DNA of 64,000 nt from a virus (lineage: Duplodnaviria; Caudoviricetes), in IMG/VR virus record IMGVR_UViG_3300029305_001452, positions 1-64,000 of that record, one strand, 5' to 3'. This document shows, piece by piece, positions 3,633 to 45,315 of this stretch; position 1 is the stretch's first letter, and every line of letters starts with the position of its first letter. Below the pieces are notes generated by a model. That model was not told the origin of the DNA and did no database searches. It saw only the letters and a program-made list of their open reading frames with translations. A program made the position numbers and the translations under genes.

Positions 3633-4487
3633 TTAGTCCGTGGATTTTGTGTACTTTATGGTTACATAGGCAGCATAATTATTCCAAGTTTCGGTGGTCT
3701 TAACAAACACATTCGTAGATGTCGCATAAATGTTAATCGTGCCAATGGAATCGGCATTCCATTGTGTCGGGAAGTAATATCTGCCGGAATGACCCCACAC
3801 CGCCACAAAGTTTTTACTATTGGAAATACCATGAGGGGTTTCAGATTTAGCATTACTGGGCAACATTCCAACGCTGATGCACTTTGCATACACAGGTTTC
3901 CCTTGATAACGCTCCGTGGTTCTGTATTCCACGCCCACTTCCATAGGTGGGTTTTGCCACTCTAATGGCTTCCATGCGCCCGAAAACTTTACTTTGAAAA
4001 TCAACGAGCCTGTCAAGTTGGCAGACCATGCCTTGATGCTACCGTTGTTTTGGGAAGACTTTGATAGAATGCCAAACCAACCATGAGAAGTTGCTGACGG
4101 ATAGCCAGTCCAGTAGACTAGTTTAGTAGTTGCACCACTCATGGCACTATAAACATCCTCTAACAAGGTTGTTAATTCATCATCAGTCTCAACTCTGGCG
4201 CTTTTCAAAGAAATAGCTGCGCCACCATAACCATACCCAGCAGATGCTTTACTATCTTCTAAAGCTTGTAATCCAGATGTTAAATCACTAACCAATGCAT
4301 ACTCATCTGGAGTTCTGCCACCGAAAGTATCTATGTTGATAACTTCTGAATAAATATCTTCGCCGTCTTCTAGTGCATAAACAGGTTCGTCCGCAACTGC
4401 AACAAACTCGTCCGCGTGCATTCCATCTAGGGTATCTGCATCACTGGATCCAAAAGACCCTAAAATTTGCAATTTTTTAGTACTCAA
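3633..4487 (-). CDS. Tail fibre/receptor-binding-like protein
   Basis: DADTLDG motif; WQNPPMEVGVEYRTTERYQGKPVY and C-terminal YTK typical of clostridial phage fibre tips. Confidence 0.65.
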   Translation of the reverse strand: MSTKKLQILGSFGSSDADTLDGMHADEFVAVADEPVYALEDGEDIYSEVINIDTFGGRTPDEYALVSDLTSGLQALEDSKASAGYGYGGAAISLKSARVETDDELTTLLEDVYSAMSGATTKLVYWTGYPSATSHGWFGILSKSSQNNGSIKAWSANLTGSLIFKVKFSGAWKPLEWQNPPMEVGVEYRTTERYQGKPVYAKCISVGMLPSNAKSETPHGISNSKNFVAVWGHSGRYYFPTQWNADSIGTINIYATSTNVFVKTTETWNNYAAYVTIKYTKSTD

Positions 4488-5289: not shown

Positions 5290-5320
5290 AAAAATGAGCT
5301 ACCGTGAGGGTGGCTCATTT
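5290..5320 (-). terminator. Intrinsic terminator after endonuclease gene
   Basis: AAATGAGCTACC/GGTGGCTCATTT hairpin plus T run on the minus strand. Confidence 0.55.
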
Positions 5321-6490
5321 GTTGAGGATCGAGTTAATTTTATTAAGAATTAATTCTTCCATTTTATTGAATTCATAATACCAAATATCTAAACAATGTA
5401 TATTATTTCGTTTTAAATAATCTCTTTTTATTTTATCATGATAAATTTGTTTTTCAAATTTTTCTTTTCCACCAAACATATCAACAGGGTGTTCGTGCTG
5501 CTCACCCATAATTTCTACAATAAGATTGTAATCTGGAAGATAAAAATCAAATGGGAGAGTATATTTATCACGACAATCATCAAAGCGTTTTTGTGGTTCG
5601 TATTTATACTTATATTTTTGGAAAATTGATTCTGCGGATAGTTCACCTTTACTCATAGATTCTTCAATATAACACGATAAACACTGATAACCACTTAAAA
5701 TATTTGTCCAATATGACCAATATGGTTGATGGTTTTCATTAGGACATTTAATTAATGCCTTTAGATATTTACAATCATCGTTGTTTGGCGTTTGTATATC
5801 TAACAACTTATAACCATAATAATGTTCTTCCAAATATTGTTGCATTGTATTTTTATTCCAATATCCATAAGGAACTCTTTTATGTCCATATTTATTTTCA
5901 TAACATCCATTACAAGAAAATCCAAACCTAGATAAATTAGAAATACGAACACTACATTCATAACCACATTCAGGACAAACTACATCAACATATTTTTCAC
6001 TACCAAATGTGTATTTATATGAGTCTTCTTTATATTTTAAATATTTAATTAAATCTGGCCTAGTAGTAGCAATGTCATTAATACCAACCATTACGGTTCT
6101 ATTTGAACAAACAGAACATTGGCTTCCACGCATTAATTTTCTTGGATCCGCACTCCATACATATCCGTCAATAGAACATTTAACTAAAATTCTTGTATCC
6201 ATATTGACATATTCTCCAATGACTTCAATGTTTGGATTAATATTTTTTAAATCTTCTACAAACTTATTATGAGATTTTGTTTGTTTTCTAGATTGCTTTT
6301 CATTACCACATTTCCTGCAACCATGTCCTCTAAGCATATTCTGTGGGAAAGCATCAAATTCAAAATCATGAATCAAACATTTAAAACGAATTTTTGTATT
6401 CATATTAATATATCTGCCAATAACTTTAATATCTGGCAAAACTAAACTTAATTCTTTTTCAAATTCCTCTTGTGTTTTTCTCTTTTTCAT
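5315..6490 (-). CDS. Free-standing homing endonuclease-like protein (Zn-ribbon repeats plus C-terminal Vsr-like/PD-(D/E)xK nuclease)
   Basis: Repeated I.VIG.Y.NM.T.I..KC..G..C..C units; C-terminal SKGE..LPFDFYLPDYNLIVEIMGEQH..D.IK; more AT-rich than the tail tube gene. Confidence 0.8.
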   Translation of the reverse strand: MKKRKTQEEFEKELSLVLPDIKVIGRYINMNTKIRFKCLIHDFEFDAFPQNMLRGHGCRKCGNEKQSRKQTKSHNKFVEDLKNINPNIEVIGEYVNMDTRILVKCSIDGYVWSADPRKLMRGSQCSVCSNRTVMVGINDIATTRPDLIKYLKYKEDSYKYTFGSEKYVDVVCPECGYECSVRISNLSRFGFSCNGCYENKYGHKRVPYGYWNKNTMQQYLEEHYYGYKLLDIQTPNNDDCKYLKALIKCPNENHQPYWSYWTNILSGYQCLSCYIEESMSKGELSAESIFQKYKYKYEPQKRFDDCRDKYTLPFDFYLPDYNLIVEIMGEQHEHPVDMFGGKEKFEKQIYHDKIKRDYLKRNNIHCLDIWYYEFNKMEELILNKINSILNK

Positions 6491-6605: not shown

Positions 6606-6634
6606 ATTATAACACATTAATTTCGTATTGTCAA
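6606..6634 (-). promoter_or_regulatory. Consensus sigma-A promoter for the endonuclease gene
   Basis: TTGACA-17 nt-TATAAT on the minus strand. Confidence 0.85.
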
Positions 6635-6644
6635 GTGTTATTAA

Positions 6645-7794
6645 TTATTCTGCATCACCAGGAATAATGATGGAGAATAATCTCTTCTCTTTATCACAGT
6701 CGCTAATCTTCAACTAAAGTCGTTAATTTTAGCCAGCACCATTACGTGCATCTTATACTTTCATATAAGGCGAGACTATATCATCACCCAGTTAAACTGG
6801 GGCATACCACTTCGAGCCACTTAGCTCTACGGCTTACGCCTAGTCGTTGAACCTTTTCCTATTCGGAACTTGGCTGCTGATTACCCATTGTTTAAATGTT
6901 TAGGATTTAACCTTGCATCATCCAATTAATTTTTTATACTTTCGTAGCATTCGCACTTAAGCATTTTTCATCTTTATGCTGTAGCTTAATTGGCTTTAGG
7001 GGTTTCCAGCAATTCAATATGTTTATCAAAACAGCTTATGCTGCTAGGGATCTATATTTCAAATCTTGCTGTGCTTTCATAGAGAAGGGATGGGTGCCAT
7101 CGGTAGCAATGCTCCAGTCGAAGTCGGGGCTTAGCTTAGCGTTGTTGAAGATAACATAAGCGTAAACTAGGTTGGTCTGATCACAAACGTCACAACCTAG
7201 TACTTCCATAACGAACTTGCAGCCAACAGGGAAGTTCTTAGCAGAGTTGACAACCTCAACAGCGTTTTCGGTTTCATACTCATACATAACGAACATCTCG
7301 GTACCAACCTTTACATCGGTGGGTAGAGAAATAGTTCTATCAGCGATAGAGAAAGCTTCTGCGGTAGCAGCATCTTCCTTACCATACTTAACACCAAAGG
7401 TGCTATCGTCATTTAGAGCATAGATCTCCTTAGGAGCAGCAACGGGAGTGTGCTTTAGGTCATACTTGCCGCCCTCAGCAACGGTGAAGCTCTCCATAGC
7501 AGGAGCAACAATCTTAGAACCAGCAGAAGCAACCTTCTTCTCAGTACCTAGCTGAGTAGCCATTAGGTTCATGTCGAATAGAGCGTTCTCAGCAGAGAAT
7601 TCTGCAGACTTAGCTCTGTAGAAAGTAGCAATAGGAGTACCCATTGCGTCAACAGCATCAGTAGACTCAGAAGCACAGTTTAGAGAAGCGTTCTGGATCT
7701 GGTTGATGGAGAATAGAACGGAATCATCCTTCTGGGATAGAGCAACACCACGGACAATTCTATCAATAACAAAGTTGTTTAAATCGAAAGCCAT
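6645..7794 (-). CDS. Major tail tube protein (SPbeta YomU position), spliced join(7794..7062,6700..6645), 262 aa
   Basis: Follows head-tail genes; highly expressed codon pattern; removing the intron restores ..MKAQQD-Y-CDKEKRLFSIIIPGDAE*. Confidence 0.8.
6701..7061 (-). ncRNA. Group I intron (361 nt, no ORF) in tail tube gene
   Basis: Exon ends in U and intron ends in G; core elements in order: AAUUGCUGGAAA (P), AAUCAGCAG (Q), UUCAACGACUA (R), GAUAUAGUC (S); excision restores the frame. Confidence 0.92.
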
Positions 7795-23418: not shown

Positions 23419-24300
23419 CTAAATATTTGCTCGTTTTTCCCTCATCAAATCTTTCATATAAGACTTTCTATGTTGTATTTGACACTCTTCGCATCTGCAA
23501 GTTTTTGTATTTAGCATACCAACAACAACATCTTCACCGCAATCAACACATTGAATAACCTTGAATTCACTTGTTTCTTCTTTCTGACTGCATTCCTTAC
23601 AATATAATTTCATTGAAGACTTTTTAGTAATCTTAAACAACCTTCCGCAACCTCTACAGCGTTTATATCCACCGTTCTTATAGTTTAGATATGCATATGC
23701 CAGTTCTTTATAATCATCTTCACCAAGTTCTAGAACAGCCTCACTATTATCATCTACGAATCCTACTACCTTTAGATTGGTTCCAACAAGCATATGCTCA
23801 ACAAGTAGTCCTTCCTGATATGCAAAGTGCAAATAACTAGCTCTTTCTTTACACGGTATTGCAACCCTAGACAGTTTAAAGAGATCACTCATAGAAATAT
23901 ACATTCTATTATTATTATCAGAAGACACATTATTATAGTATTTTGCAACTGCCAGAAGAACAAATGCAATTTTTTCTTTCCTAATATCATTCAATCCAAC
24001 TATTTTATCAATTTCAGTCCGAGTGATTTTTACAGGTGATACACTTCTAAATTTATACTTTTTTGCACTAGAGATGTTTCTATAAATGATTTTAAAATAC
24101 TTTTCTTCATAGAAATCAGCACAATTATTAGTCATATAAGTCAAAATTGCATCATAATTGTCTTCTTTTTTCATACCAAGTATATGGTGGTTATATCTTG
24201 CCAAATCTCTAATTGTCTCTTCTGGATTATTTTGGTTAACATATCCGCTCTGAATCTTTTCTTCAATATCTTTTCTGTCATCAAATTTAAAATTAATCAT
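23419..24300 (-). CDS. Hypothetical protein with C-terminal Zn ribbons, coupled to the RNAP gene
   Basis: CRGC..YCKEC..CVDC..RCEEC; overlaps the RNAP stop. Confidence 0.7.
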   Translation of the reverse strand: MINFKFDDRKDIEEKIQSGYVNQNNPEETIRDLARYNHHILGMKKEDNYDAILTYMTNNCADFYEEKYFKIIYRNISSAKKYKFRSVSPVKITRTEIDKIVGLNDIRKEKIAFVLLAVAKYYNNVSSDNNNRMYISMSDLFKLSRVAIPCKERASYLHFAYQEGLLVEHMLVGTNLKVVGFVDDNSEAVLELGEDDYKELAYAYLNYKNGGYKRCRGCGRLFKITKKSSMKLYCKECSQKEETSEFKVIQCVDCGEDVVVGMLNTKTCRCEECQIQHRKSYMKDLMREKRANI

Positions 24301-27300
24301 TCATTTCACCTCCAGCTCTAACACTTTTCATAGTAAATTTAAACCCGCCGTAACTAAATTCTCCATTTACATCTTGTTCGGGATAAGTATAACAACCAGA
24401 CTTTGCAATAAGTTTTTCCACAATCACATCTCCACATAAGTTCCATACAATACTAACATCGATACCATCTTTATAACAAATATCAAGCAGCATTTCACAT
24501 AAAATATATTTATTTTGACAAATTGAGAAACAAGTTTCCTCTAACTCTGCATTAAGTTTAACAATCTGATCAGCAGCGCTCTCTTCTTCATCTTCATGCT
24601 CTACGAATTTTTTCTTGTTAATCTCACGTTTCTTCTGTCTATACGCTTCACACTTAAGCTTTATAAGCTCATAATCCTCTTGTGCATACTCAAGACAACT
24701 TTTATAAATTTCATAGTCGAAATTAACATTTTCAAACATGTCAACACCGTCGAATACATCTTCAACGGCCCAACAAATACGATTCATAGTAGAGGGTGAG
24801 ACATCAAGAGGTAGGCGTTTTTTATAAAAATCCAAGATTTTTTGCTCATTTTCTGGCAAATTACCATCATTTTTAAGTAAATCTCGTATATTTTTACCAG
24901 TTATACTTTGAATATGATCATCTGTATCACGAACAAATGCATCGTATTCTTGCTTTAAAGTGGTGTAGTTATAGCCAAAAAAGTATGGTTTTTTGAATGC
25001 ACATAGCTGTTGATTTAGTGTTTTTTGTTCTATAATTTCAGCAGAATCGTCATTTCTTACTATATTTTCTTTAAAAATATACCAACTTTTAGGCATCGGG
25101 TTGGGTAAAATTCCCTTAGCTTTCCTTTATACCCTCGGTTTCCCGATATTTTAGTAGGGGAGTAGACTATATCTTCAACTCATAACGAGTTGTGTGGCAC
25201 TTCCAAATGAGGAGTTTCACCTCAAATGTACTTCCTTACGGAATAGTCGTTTGACGTTCTTGCTTACGCAAGCTTCGCACTGGATTAACATATGTGTGTT
25301 TATTTTATGGAACTTGTTTCCATCTTTTATAATTGCAAATATCATTAATGCATTGAGGAGTAACGTTATATTTTCTTGAAATTTCAGAATAGTTGAAACC
25401 ATCTCTATGTAATTTTCTAATTTCTACAACATCATCTACACAAAGCTTCTTAGGATTCTTCTCATAATATTTTTGTTGAGCCTGTTGTATGTTTTTACGA
25501 CCATCTTCACTCATTGGTGCATACTTCATTCCAGTATGAGTTTCGGACATCTTTGCTCTTGTCTCATCTGATGCTTTTCTTCCTATGCCGTTAATTCTAT
25601 TTTTCTCACCTATTTTTCTTTTTGTCTCATCGGATAAATGTTTTCCAAGGTTATATCCTTCATCTCCGCCGTCGTGAATATTATAAGCAAGTCCCATATC
25701 TTTATATAATTTAATATAATATTTTTCTCGATCACTTAATTCACCAACGCTGCAATCTTCAATAACTATAAACTCGAAATTTTCTTGTTTATATTTATCC
25801 CATGCACTTTGTAAATGCGGATTATCGTGTTTACCATTGTTTAATAAAGAACGATGCGAATCCCATCTATCTCCAAAATTCATTCCAGTTTTACCAACAT
25901 AAATTTTACCATTAACTAAATTTCTAATACCATAAATACCGATTCTAGAATAAATATTATCTTCACGTTTAACCATATTACTCCTCCTTTCTTAATTAAT
26001 TTTGTATTGTTAACACACACTTAGTTTTTCCCAGTTAGCTAACTCGTTAACACTCATTTCCTAATGCTACTTTACGTCGAGTTAACACCCTATATTTATA
26101 GGTTCACCACATTATTCGATGCATGTCACCATGCAAAGCGACTGTAATTCAATCGATTTCTTCCTGTTGAAGAGCTTGCCCGCACTGAGTTCTATATCTT
26201 AAAATCTCATATTCACGACTTCCTGGCTCATAATTTGACATTAAAGAAGTGATTGCTGTGATTCTGTTAGTTATACTACCAATCTTACTACCAAATCCAT
26301 TCTTATTTGCTTTAATTACATCTGCCTCAGTAACCACTTTCCTCGAAGCATTGTACTGAATGCAGTTTAGTGCAGGCAAATTCTTCTGGTTCTTAAGTAG
26401 TGGAGCGTTGTCAGTAGTGAAGAGTAGATCTCCGTCAAAATCAAAACCATTAAGAGCCATTGGCATTGTATCCCAAGCATTCACAACAGCCACTGTATCC
26501 ATATATTTAAACCAGTATTCTGCTTTATCATCATAGCAGATATCCTGAGAAACCAACGAATGTTCGTTAGACATTGGTGCTCTAGCACACATTACACGCT
26601 TCACACCACAATCTTTCCAGTATTTACTGTAAATTTCGCCAGCTTTTAGTAATCCATGCACCTCTAAACCAAACATACTCTCACATAGAGCATATATGTC
26701 TCCAGAAATAATTTGGAAGTTACCACTTACATCAAGCACACCAATCTTGGCCTCTCTAATACGTTTGTTAATCATTTTCTTAATTCTATTGCGAATATAT
26801 GGGTCATTTATAGTCTCTGAATTAGCCATAAGCGCTCTTGCAGCAGCATCCACATACTGAATATTCTCTGCTTTTAAGTTCTTACCACATAAATACACAA
26901 TACTTTTTCTAGGATCTAAGCCAATAGTATCCTTAATTTCATTCACAGTAGGAGAGATAAGCTCCTGAATATCTTCGTCAGACAAGTTTAAAGACTGTAT
27001 AAACTGGTAATTTAACTGTCTTACGGTATCAACTTCATGCGGTGCGGTCTTAGCAACTCTAATTGTATACTTATTTTCTAGACACTTATTATAATAATCT
27101 TCCCATGAATCATAACAAGCCCAAAGTTTCAACTGGCTCTCAGTAATAATTAGTTCGGAATCTCTAATATCTCTCTGTTGTCCCCAAATATCAGTAATTA
27201 AATACTTTTCAGGGCAATCATCGGAAGCACCAACAACTTCTTCTGCAAACTTTATGTAGTCAAAAGTAAATGTCATACCTTTAGTCCATGCACAACGAAG

Positions 27301-28122
27301 ATTACAACCGCTCATTGTATGCTCATAGTCATCATTGAGCTCACCATTCCATCTTCTGGATAAAGACGGTAACATCATAGAACAACCATCAGAACAATTA
27401 TTTTTAACTAATTGATTTTCTGCAAACTGAACAATTGGCTCTTTAGTTCTATCACTATCATCAATATTAATTAAATCAGCACTAAATTCTGTAAAGGCGT
27501 CTCTAATAACTATAACGCCACCAGGAATTGGTGCATATTTATCCTTCGGCCAACTAACCTCAAGTGAACCACTTGCGGCCAGCGCCTCATATGCACCTAG
27601 CTTCGCAGGCACTAACTTAACCTCGTTATTTTTACCATTCTCAATACGCTTCTTTAATTCAGGATGCAATCTCTCACTAACATACACAACAGTAGATGTC
27701 TTAACGCCGCCAGTTGTACATAATAATCTTAAATACCTAATTCCATTTACATAGAATCCTTGATTCGCACGGTCATAATCAGACTTCTTATCCATTATGA
27801 CACATAGATAATCCTCTTTAAACTGTAGTCTATATAACTGTTTGTACAAATTTGAGATTTTAGTTTTATTACTACGACTCACCGGCTGATTTTTAATCTC
27901 TTTAATCTGACGCTTAATTTCTTTTGCCTGAATATCATAGTCTTCAGTTCCGTTTAGCTCATTAATCCAAGATAGGATCTGAGAATCCGCTAGGGCAACG
28001 ACAAGCCCAGTTGTATTTCTAGCTCTGTTTAGCGGCAAAGTTAAATCCCAATTATTTTTACGCAATAGAGTAGAGTTAATCTTAAATACATATTGTTGTA
28101 ATTTCTTTTGCTTCGCCAACAA
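24293..28122 (-). CDS. yonO: YonO-type single-subunit double-psi-barrel RNA polymerase, spliced join(28122..26152,25123..24293), 933 aa
   Basis: SDGCS, K-x-M (TKGMT), RAP and catalytic NGFDFDGD; intron removal restores QQEEID-KAKG. Confidence 0.9.
25124..26151 (-). mobile_element. Group I intron (1028 nt) with embedded GIY-YIG endonuclease
   Basis: Exon ends in U and intron ends in G; P1 CGAU/GUCG with U-G pair; P AACUGGGAAA, Q AAUCCAGUG, R CAAACGACUA, S GAAGAUAUAGUC. Confidence 0.92.
25305..25976 (-). CDS. GIY-YIG homing endonuclease with NUMOD3 repeats and C-terminal HTH
   Basis: GIYGIRNLVNGKIYVG, R..H, RE.YYI, YN; HLSDETKRKI and ASDETRAKMS repeats. Confidence 0.93.
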   Translation of the reverse strand: MVKREDNIYSRIGIYGIRNLVNGKIYVGKTGMNFGDRWDSHRSLLNNGKHDNPHLQSAWDKYKQENFEFIVIEDCSVGELSDREKYYIKLYKDMGLAYNIHDGGDEGYNLGKHLSDETKRKIGEKNRINGIGRKASDETRAKMSETHTGMKYAPMSEDGRKNIQQAQQKYYEKNPKKLCVDDVVEIRKLHRDGFNYSEISRKYNVTPQCINDICNYKRWKQVP

Positions 28123-45239: not shown

Positions 45240-45315
45240 GGAGGTGTGACCAATGTATCATACACAAGGCAAATCAACAGTACAAAATTAATAAGCGAAA
45301 GGAAGATGATTTATT

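Follow-up and report, generated by a model that had tools for sequence, protein, structure and literature searches.

A probable mobile group I intron with a GIY-YIG endonuclease gene in the YonO-family RNA polymerase gene of an SPbeta-like gut phage

How can a phage make a complete RNA polymerase (RNAP) when the open reading frame (ORF) that encodes it stops inside an invariant motif, and the rest of the enzyme is encoded only after a further 1028 nucleotides (nt)? This question is raised by a locus in the window, the 64,000-nt stretch of phage DNA analysed here, which is the first 64 kb of the 139,972-bp IMG/VR virus record IMGVR_UViG_3300029305_001452. The source is an uncultivated SPbeta-like gut phage of about 140 kb. 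The answer proposed here is that the gene, which belongs to the YonO family of single-chain, two-barrel RNA polymerases, very probably contains a mobile group I intron with a GIY-YIG endonuclease. Coordinates are window positions unless another locus is named, and all features of the polymerase locus lie on the minus strand.

The interrupted gene and its alleles

Exon 1 of the polymerase gene (26152..28122) comprises 657 codons from a TTG start. In the ORF list it appears as 26149..28122, including a TGA stop at 26151..26149. Its product contains the sequence NGFDFDGD, in which DFDGD occupies residues 561-565 and supplies the Asp triad D561/D563/D565, and it ends in ...CGQALQQEEID. Downstream, a 267-residue ORF is found at 24293..25096, and its frame is open upstream as far as 25123. 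Exon 2 (24293..25123) has 276 codons plus a stop and begins with the residues KAKGILPNPMP. Its internal ATG at 25096, nine codons in, is not preceded by a Shine-Dalgarno sequence, and there is no start codon at the junction itself. The first-pass annotation had described a DFDGD-containing ORF of 657 residues that ends in QQEEID, with the frame resuming at KAKGILPNPMP directly after an omega-G, and all of its coordinates and strings are correct.

At the splice points, exon 1 ends in ...GAAATCGAT and exon 2 starts with AAAGCTAAGGGA. The insert between them starts with TGA and ends in ...TATAAAGG, with the final G at 25124. The first triplet of the insert is thus a stop codon, which ends translation of the unspliced RNA after exon 1. 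When 28122..26152 is joined to 25123..24293, the result is a protein of 933 residues plus a stop. The predicted nucleotide junction of the spliced RNA is GAAATCGAT-AAAGCTAAGGG, i.e. ATCGAT-AAAGCT.

The joined protein behaves as a single chain in two comparisons. In the PHROG family phrog_35857, residues 586-657 of exon 1 align to profile positions 4-75, and residues 3-263 of exon 2 align to positions 78-338. The exons are colinear, because the profile positions run on across the junction. In addition, alignment with the uninterrupted 831-residue homologue of Enterocloster phage PMBT24 has no gap at the junction (QQEEID|KAKGILPNPMPKSWY in the window versus QQNELD|KLKGIIAKDMPKNWY in PMBT24), and exon 2 can be aligned with that homologue up to residue 895. 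That removal of 26151..25124 yields a protein of 933 residues, as had first been proposed, is borne out by the PMBT24 alignment and by the continuous ORFs of close relatives.

These relatives were found among 21 related IMG/VR loci that were compared for an insert at the junction bond. One continuous ORF is present in 17 of the 21. Continuous 933-residue ORFs with 88-91% amino acid identity to the joined protein occur in L008, L009, L010, L013, L014 and L024, where the sequence at the junction is identical, and L025 and ten loci at about 60% identity are likewise uninterrupted. The remaining four loci have an insert at exactly the same bond, of 1028 nt in L011, 1027 nt in L012, 1039 nt in L026 and 230 nt in L007. 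The inserts of L011 and L012 contain the same ORF as that of the window, that of L026 contains a related but more divergent GIY-YIG ORF, and that of L007 (7972-8201 of its locus) contains no ORF. The exon 1 product of the L007 gene is 95% identical to that of the window, and the first 14 and last approximately 50 nt of the L007 insert are common with the window insert, while its P3-P8 core is different and shorter.

Presence or absence at one bond is the pattern expected of a mobile intron, and the presence of this intron is patchy among alleles that are at least 91% identical. The sequence ATCGAT before the bond is kept by all intron-plus alleles. Among intron-minus alleles, several have ATTGAT or ATCGAC and others have ATCGAT too.

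The host polymerase and its role

The assignment of this gene to the YonO family, already made on first inspection, agrees with several independent searches. Exon 1 matches the Pfam RdRP family (PF05183) with 28.5 bits, over a cut-off of 23.8 bits, and matches yonO of SPBc2 by tblastn with an E-value (E) of 4e-25. The joined protein matches SPBc2 YonO by blastp (E 2e-34, 26% identity over 525 residues), and its DFDGD lies opposite the DNDGD of YonO. The RDR2/QDE-1 type of fold described below supports the same assignment.

The polymerase family comprises 1719 representatives at E <= 0.001. In 77 diverse full-length homologues, the residues K174, D245, K281, K332, R514, P516, D561, D563, D565, R644, I656, D657 and K660 are invariant. 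It has been established that the invariant barrel residues of two-barrel polymerases, besides DxDGD, are Arg, Pro, Lys, Lys and Asp (PMC2919709). The columns D245, K281, K332, R514 and P516 and the Asp triad probably correspond one-to-one to Rpb1/Rpb2 positions. The insertion point lies between the codons of Asp657 and Lys658 in the motif QQxxID|xxKG, about 92 residues past DFDGD. As I656, D657 and K660 are invariant in the 77-homologue alignment, the motif interrupted by the intron is an invariant one.

When exon 1 was compared with PDB sequences, no match was obtained at E <= 1, and a predicted fold was therefore used for structure comparison. The AlphaFold2 model of the intron-less homologue P0008, which is 94% identical over exon 1, has a mean predicted local distance difference test score (pLDDT) of 93.2 and a predicted template modelling score (pTM) of 0.90. 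The top Foldseek matches to this model are RDR2 (7w82, E 3.5e-17) and QDE-1 (2j7n, E 4.7e-14), with matches to these two enzymes ranging to 1e-12. The next matches are the RNA polymerases of phages P74 (gp62) and P32 (gp64) and of the crAss-like phage phi14:2. On this model, the host enzyme has the fold of two double-psi beta-barrels. In the model, a helix of 25 residues (636-660) has the intron site at its C-terminal end and may be the counterpart of the bridge helix.

YonO is the DNA-dependent RNAP of the late genes of SPbeta (PMC5467207). The window enzyme resembles it in being a single-chain two-barrel polymerase with an Asp triad (Forrest et al. 2017, PMC5467207), and SPbeta and the window phage are both temperate-type Firmicutes phages of roughly 130-140 kb. 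By analogy, the window polymerase probably has the late-gene role of YonO. If it drives late genes as YonO does in SPbeta, then late expression would depend on splicing.

It is unlikely that the intron is as described here and the host enzyme is something other than a late-gene DNA-dependent RNAP, in which case splicing would not gate late transcription. The closest solved folds, RDR2 and QDE-1, are those of RNA-dependent enzymes, the identity to YonO is only 26%, and deposited relatives of the polymerase are annotated as RNA-dependent RNA polymerase, all of which point toward such a role. However, YonO is the only characterised bacterial-virus member of this branch, and it is a DNA-dependent late-gene enzyme (PMC5467207). 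Moreover, SPbeta-like phages of comparable size have kept the gene, and its neighbours are similar, including a histone-like protein gene downstream of the polymerase in both PMBT24 and SPBc2. A 17-nt motif with 12 copies in the window (see the next section) is a candidate promoter for this polymerase.

The yonO gene of SPBc2 differs from that of the window in being uninterrupted and in encoding 839 rather than 933 residues. It also differs in its zinc ribbon, which in the window phage seems to lie in the next gene, the evidence for this being weak. That gene is a 293-residue ORF (23419..24300) with a CxxC...CxxC zinc ribbon, which has an 8-nt overlap with the stop of exon 2. Its zinc ribbon matches YonO residues 796-820 weakly (E 0.02), and its equivalent in Clostridium phage c-st is annotated as "YonO C-ter only". 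Exon 2 itself aligns with the YonO C-terminus by blastp only in weak colinear patches (E 1.4). In the clade of the window phage, the C-terminal module of YonO may therefore be a separate, translationally coupled protein.

The ribozyme and the endonuclease gene

The bounds of the 1028-nt insert (25124..26151) are fixed by the intron-less alleles, with the omega G at 25124. Its helices were compared in a covariation set of 20 distinct family members, which were gathered via a conserved 3′ 21-mer. This 21-mer, ATATCGGGAAACCGAGGGTAT, is found in over 111 IMG/VR contigs, beside many different 3′ exons and host genes. The last 54 nt of the intron are also 94% identical to the terL intron of Enterococcus phages.

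At the 5′ splice site, P1 (26139..26155) is formed by exon nucleotides CGAU (26155..26152) and intron nucleotides UG (26151..26150), which pair with the guide CAGUCG (26144..26139). This places the final U of the exon opposite a G at the 5′ splice site, and the intron ends in a G at 25124. The intron pairs of P1 covary, being UG/CA in the window, CA/UG in L026, UA/UA in Bacillus phage Goe11 and UG/CG in L011. In Enterocloster phage CB473P3, exon and guide have changed jointly (UGGAU/GUCCA). P2 is a hairpin, UGCAUG-GUGA-CAUGCA (26120..26135), with the counterparts UAUACA-GUAA-UGUAUA in L007 and ACAUA-GUAA-UAUGU in L026. The 5′ strand of P3, UGUGG (26107..26111), pairs with CCACA (25197..25193), and all five of its pairs are formed in 16 of 20 members by 12 different 5-mers.

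Between P3 and J3/4 lies an extra peripheral domain of about 65 nt (26038..26102), which has three parts. The first is a hairpin, CCUAU-AAAU-AUAGG (26102..26089). The second is the 8-bp stem B, GUUAACUC/GAGUUAGC (26086..26079 / 26045..26038), which forms 8 of 8 pairs in 18 of 20 members despite varied sequences. The third is a hairpin inside stem B with the conserved loop AGGAAAUG (26067..26050); both hairpins were compared by eye across members. The Rfam group I model handles the entire domain as an insertion and has no positions for it. No named P3.1-type domain in phage introns was found in the literature, and the domain matched no named subgroup feature. It is conserved in further loci of the family, among them L003, L028 and L070. 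The 5′ part of the window intron also has three copies of the octamer GTGTTAAC, at 26088, 26053 and 26016 (intron positions 64, 99 and 136), each of which overlaps a stem strand.

The 5′ strand of P4, ACUGGG (26030..26035; the P element), pairs with UCCAGU (25284..25279; the Q element). The second position of the CNGGG strand, which is the third of the 6-nt strand, can be any of the four bases, and each is compensated among the 20 members (CUGGG/UCCAG, CAGGG/UCCUG, CGGGG/UCCCG and CCGGG/UCCGG). P5a, the outer part of P5, is formed by GUGUGUGUU (26012..26020) and AACACACAU (25300..25292) and closes the ORF-bearing loop. Its counterparts differ in sequence yet pair, as UAUAUGUGUA/UACACAUAUA in L026 and as AAUACAUU..UACAUU/AAUGUA..AAUGUAUU in Goe11. 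The stem between the P4 strands therefore surrounds the ORF, in agreement with the initial description of a GIY-YIG ORF looped out between the P and Q elements.

In the 3′ half of the intron, P6 and P6a (25253..25278) consist of GCG..CGU around CUUGC-GUAA-GCAAG and have compensatory changes. P7, GACUA/UAGUC (25248..25244 / 25169..25165), encloses P7.1 (25243..25232), P7.2 (25224..25208), the 3′ strand of P3 and P8 (25191..25177) in the region 25165..25248. P7.1, P7.2 and P8 have 4-10 double changes per pair, and J8/7 is GAAGAUA. The P9 region and the 3′ terminus GGGUAUAAAGG occupy 25124..25164, with a hairpin UCGG-GAAA-CCGA at 25146..25135. RNAalifold applied to the 3′ halves of 17 members recovers P6, P6a, P7, P7.1, P7.2, P8 and P9, with double compensatory changes in 23 of 36 pairs. 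In P7, these include columns 69:201 (CG/GC) and 70:200 (UA/CG), the latter type of switch, from U-A to C-G, being seen among the 20 members. The sequences CAAACGACUA and GAAGAUAUAGUC agree with the RF00028 consensus, and the letters of J6/7 and J8/7 match it.

These sequence features, P7.1 and P7.2 among them, place the insert with the group I introns of the phage IA type. Its placement at exactly 26151..25124, as first annotated, is supported by the intron-less alleles together with the covariation of the core helices. Guanosine-dependent self-splicing through P1 (CGAU|UG paired with CAGUCG) would restore the 933-residue polymerase.

The loop of P5 contains a gene of 223 codons (25305..25976), which encodes a GIY-YIG domain (residues 13-95), a NUMOD3 motif (from residue 132) and a C-terminal helix-turn-helix (HTH; residues 175-210). 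In Pfam, the ORF matches GIY-YIG (PF01541) at E 2.3e-11, NUMOD3 at E 8e-9 and HTH_38 at E 4.5e-4, the last being below the Pfam cut-off, and it also matches PHROG homing endonuclease families. Its nearest solved relative is the catalytic domain of I-TevI (1MK0/1LN0, E 2e-7). In the alignment with 1MK0, GIY, YVG, the R of GDRW, the H of GKH, the E of REKYY and the N of YNI fall in the same columns; we take these to be the catalytic Tyr, Tyr, Arg, His, Glu and Asn in the residue numbering of I-TevI. The gene is preceded by a strong ribosome-binding site, AAAGGAGGAG (25990..25981). As judged from its sequence, the ORF is an intact I-TevI-like GIY-YIG/NUMOD3/HTH endonuclease gene with its own ribosome-binding site. 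The predicted enzyme would cut intron-less alleles near ATCGAT|AAAGC, and repair would copy the intron in, i.e. homing. For an enzyme of the I-TevI type, the cut would be expected about 20-25 bp upstream of the insertion point. The initial suggestion that the nuclease would target the IDKAKG-coding DNA of relatives is a reasonable one.

Just upstream of this ribosome-binding site, the intron contains a perfect copy of the 17-nt motif AACAATACAAAATTAAT (25995..26011). The motif is an intergenic one found throughout the phage and, with up to 2 mismatches, has 12 copies in the window versus 0.13 expected, all of them in gene orientation. The other copies are at 6616, 20239, 23377, 30069, 37295 and 37809 on the minus strand and at 45276, 50793, 58371, 59088 and 60489 on the plus strand. 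Those at 6616 and 60489 are full TTGACA-N17-TATAAT promoters, and the rest are without a -10 box. The intronic copy is kept in the introns of L011, L012 and L026 and is not found in that of Goe11. It is probably an expression signal of the endonuclease ORF itself.

Competing explanations, known systems and distribution

Several observations weigh against a mobile group I intron. The Rfam group I model RF00028 matches only the 3′ core of the window intron (25143..25348; 22.3 bits, E 0.0046) and thus misses its gathering threshold of 50 bits. The ORF-less same-site relatives, with 40.4 bits (E 4.8e-9) for L007 and 38.3 bits (E 2.4e-8) for a member in an SPbeta-like contig, are under this threshold too. 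Pairing to the 3′ exon as P10 is at best weak. When intron-plus and intron-minus alleles were compared, there was no clear signal of a co-conversion tract or of a flanking haplotype shared among intron-plus alleles. Finally, intron divergence parallels exon divergence, and therefore the intron may have been in these lineages for a long time and not have moved recently.

The low RF00028 score is attributable to the 743-nt insert in P5, which includes the 672-nt ORF, and to the extra P3-P4 domain, which the model does not place. At the gathering threshold, Rfam found nothing at this intron, its sole match over the window being another intron at 6752..7071. RF00028 was also not matched when the loci of PMBT24, c-st and CB473P3 were scanned with Rfam at E <= 0.01, or four ORF-less loci of the family at E <= 0.001. 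Since matches surfaced only in short-region scans, a low Rfam score does not argue against group I membership for introns of this subfamily. No family member tested reached 50 bits, and the helices were therefore tested directly by structure and covariation.

Similar divergence of intron and exons, which suggests long residence, would also be expected of a decayed intron, in which splicing is inefficient or the endonuclease inactive and the polymerase is effectively a pseudogene or poorly expressed. Moreover, ORF-less and remnant-ORF versions are found elsewhere (L007, CB473P3). However, all core helices of the window intron are intact, and its core differences from L011 and L012 are compensatory (UUCC/GGAA versus UCCC/GGGA in P7.1 and AACUC/GAGUU versus GACUC/GAGUC in P8). 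In nucleotide comparisons with L011 and L012, conservation along the locus is highest in the ribozyme halves (88-95% identity), with 81-83% in the ORF and 76-82% in the exons. The ORF stays open over its 223 codons in three phages at 83-90% amino acid identity and has its catalytic positions aligned to those of I-TevI, and both exons are still open and conserved. Decay is accordingly a very improbable account of this locus.

It is scarcely credible that the polymerase is naturally split into two subunits that assemble unspliced around a free-standing endonuclease gene, as might be suggested by the 656-675-residue and 267-residue products called in many metagenomes, by the c-st record with separate N-terminal and C-terminal YonO-like proteins and by the split polymerase subunits of other phages (PMC2919709), because exon 2 has neither a start codon at the junction nor a Shine-Dalgarno sequence before its first ATG, the invariant K660-G661 would stay untranslated, the spacer folds as a conserved group I core in which changes are compensatory, the gene is a single continuous ORF in near-identical relatives and ORF-less 230-nt inserts occur at exactly the same phosphodiester bond.

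Two other kinds of insert were considered and ruled out. An intein does not fit an insert that opens with a stop codon and is not in frame, and a group II intron does not fit a group I core.

Comparable introns are known from other phages. The T4 td intron with I-TevI is likewise of group IA, has P7.1 and P7.2 and encodes a GIY-YIG endonuclease with a C-terminal helix-turn-helix. It differs in its host gene, and the extra three-stem P3-P4 domain belongs to the window intron. In the T4 intron the ORF lies in the P6 loop, as opposed to the P5 loop in the window, and is expressed from its own internal signals.

The closest parallel by site is in the yonO genes of Bacillus phages vB_BsuS-Goe11 (MT601272) and Goe14 (OL580764), which are likewise interrupted after ATCGAT. 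The interruption follows ...NNFTID, corresponds to SPBc2 YonO 625|626 and is at the homologous site. Their intron is of the same family, with the P1 guide xxGUCG, the extra P3-P4 domain, an ORF in the P5 loop and the 3′ end AAAUAUCGGGAAACCGAGGGUAU, and its ORF has the same GIY-YIG, NUMOD3 and HTH architecture as that of the window. Unlike the window intron, it is 1290 nt long, contains an ORF of 268-300 residues, has GACCA/UGGUC as P7 and has no copy of the 17-nt motif before the ORF. Identity between the host proteins and the window polymerase is only about 26%. In both records, the genes are given as yonO_1, hypothetical protein and yonO_2, and no intron is annotated.

Introns have also been described in the RNAP genes of other phages. 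In 201phi2-1, the gp273/274 polymerase gene contains an intron with a homing endonuclease (PMC2919709). In PhiPA3, a group I intron with a homing endonuclease lies right after conserved Asp residues of a phage RNAP gene, as in the window, and the gp210 endonuclease cuts the intron-less homologue of a co-infecting phage, which gives a competitive advantage (Birkholz et al. 2024, PMC11620839). The PhiPA3 system differs in that the host gene encodes the virion RNAP beta subunit of a multi-subunit enzyme in a jumbo phage, the endonuclease is an HNH nickase, and competition was demonstrated there (PMC11620839).

It was initially stated that no intron had been described in a YonO-family gene. This stands for the literature that could be searched, in which no published description of one was found, but such introns are common in sequence data, including Goe11, Goe14, c-st and CB473P3. 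The c-st homologue has a 318-nt ORF-less intron within DxDGD (D-M-D|G-D; L002 4672-4989). CB473P3 has an ORF-less intron at the ID site and a second one, of 434 nt, inside D-F-D|G-D (L003 about 2345-2778). The 3′ ends of the DxDGD introns of c-st and CB473P3 are related to that of the window intron. Moreover, many metagenomic homologues end after the first Asp (D|xDGD), which gives at least two insertion positions within the triad. Ends at the ID site are found in 16 of the 120 nearest clusters at 90% identity. In a set of 150 representatives at 50% identity, the end is at QQxxI(D)| in 9 and at D|xDGD or DxD|GD in 13, so that about 15% are interrupted.

By sequence comparison, an intron at this site is thus already present in publicly available genomes of Bacillus phages and in many relatives from metagenomes, and the event is an ordinary one. 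It is no new kind of element. For annotation, it means that gene callers give a 657-residue polymerase and a 267-residue hypothetical protein for one 933-residue enzyme. The same error is found in the isolate genomes of Goe11, Goe14, c-st and CB473P3, and in about one of every seven metagenomic clusters of the family. The YonO branch joins the phage polymerase genes whose invariant catalytic motifs have been colonised by homing introns. With alleles that have the intron, lack it or have it without an ORF at a single site, the locus offers a natural system in which to test for a role of such introns in competition among related gut phages.

A more far-reaching proposal is doubtful, though worth stating. 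In this proposal, the YonO-type polymerase would use AACAATACAAAATTAAT as its promoter, production of the nuclease would have to await splicing and translation of the host gene, and the nuclease would act as a weapon like PhiPA3 gp210 against intron-less co-infecting relatives, with YonO genes being a major unreported hot spot for introns. If this were true, there would be at least four insertion positions in two invariant motifs of the YonO family, with about 15% of family clusters interrupted, and YonO-family genes would host a group I subclass with the extra three-stem P3-P4 domain.

Other structured RNAs were seen in the window and in loci fetched for the intron survey. A second group I intron, which is ORF-less, lies at 6752-7071 on the minus strand of the window (RF00028, 74.9 bits, E 3.4e-17). 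It splits a 252-residue ORF (7036..7794) near its 3′ end and leaves an exon 2 of only about 14 codons. The gene that comes next (5315..6490, 391 residues) encodes a protein with repeats of a CapR/treble-clef zinc-finger module, which might be a free-standing endonuclease. Among the survey loci, L064 contains a HEARO RNA (RF02033, 111 bits) at 3692-3906 on the minus strand, and L070 (3480-3545) and L093 (8947-9012) contain DUF3800-VIII RNAs (RF03075, 44.7 bits).

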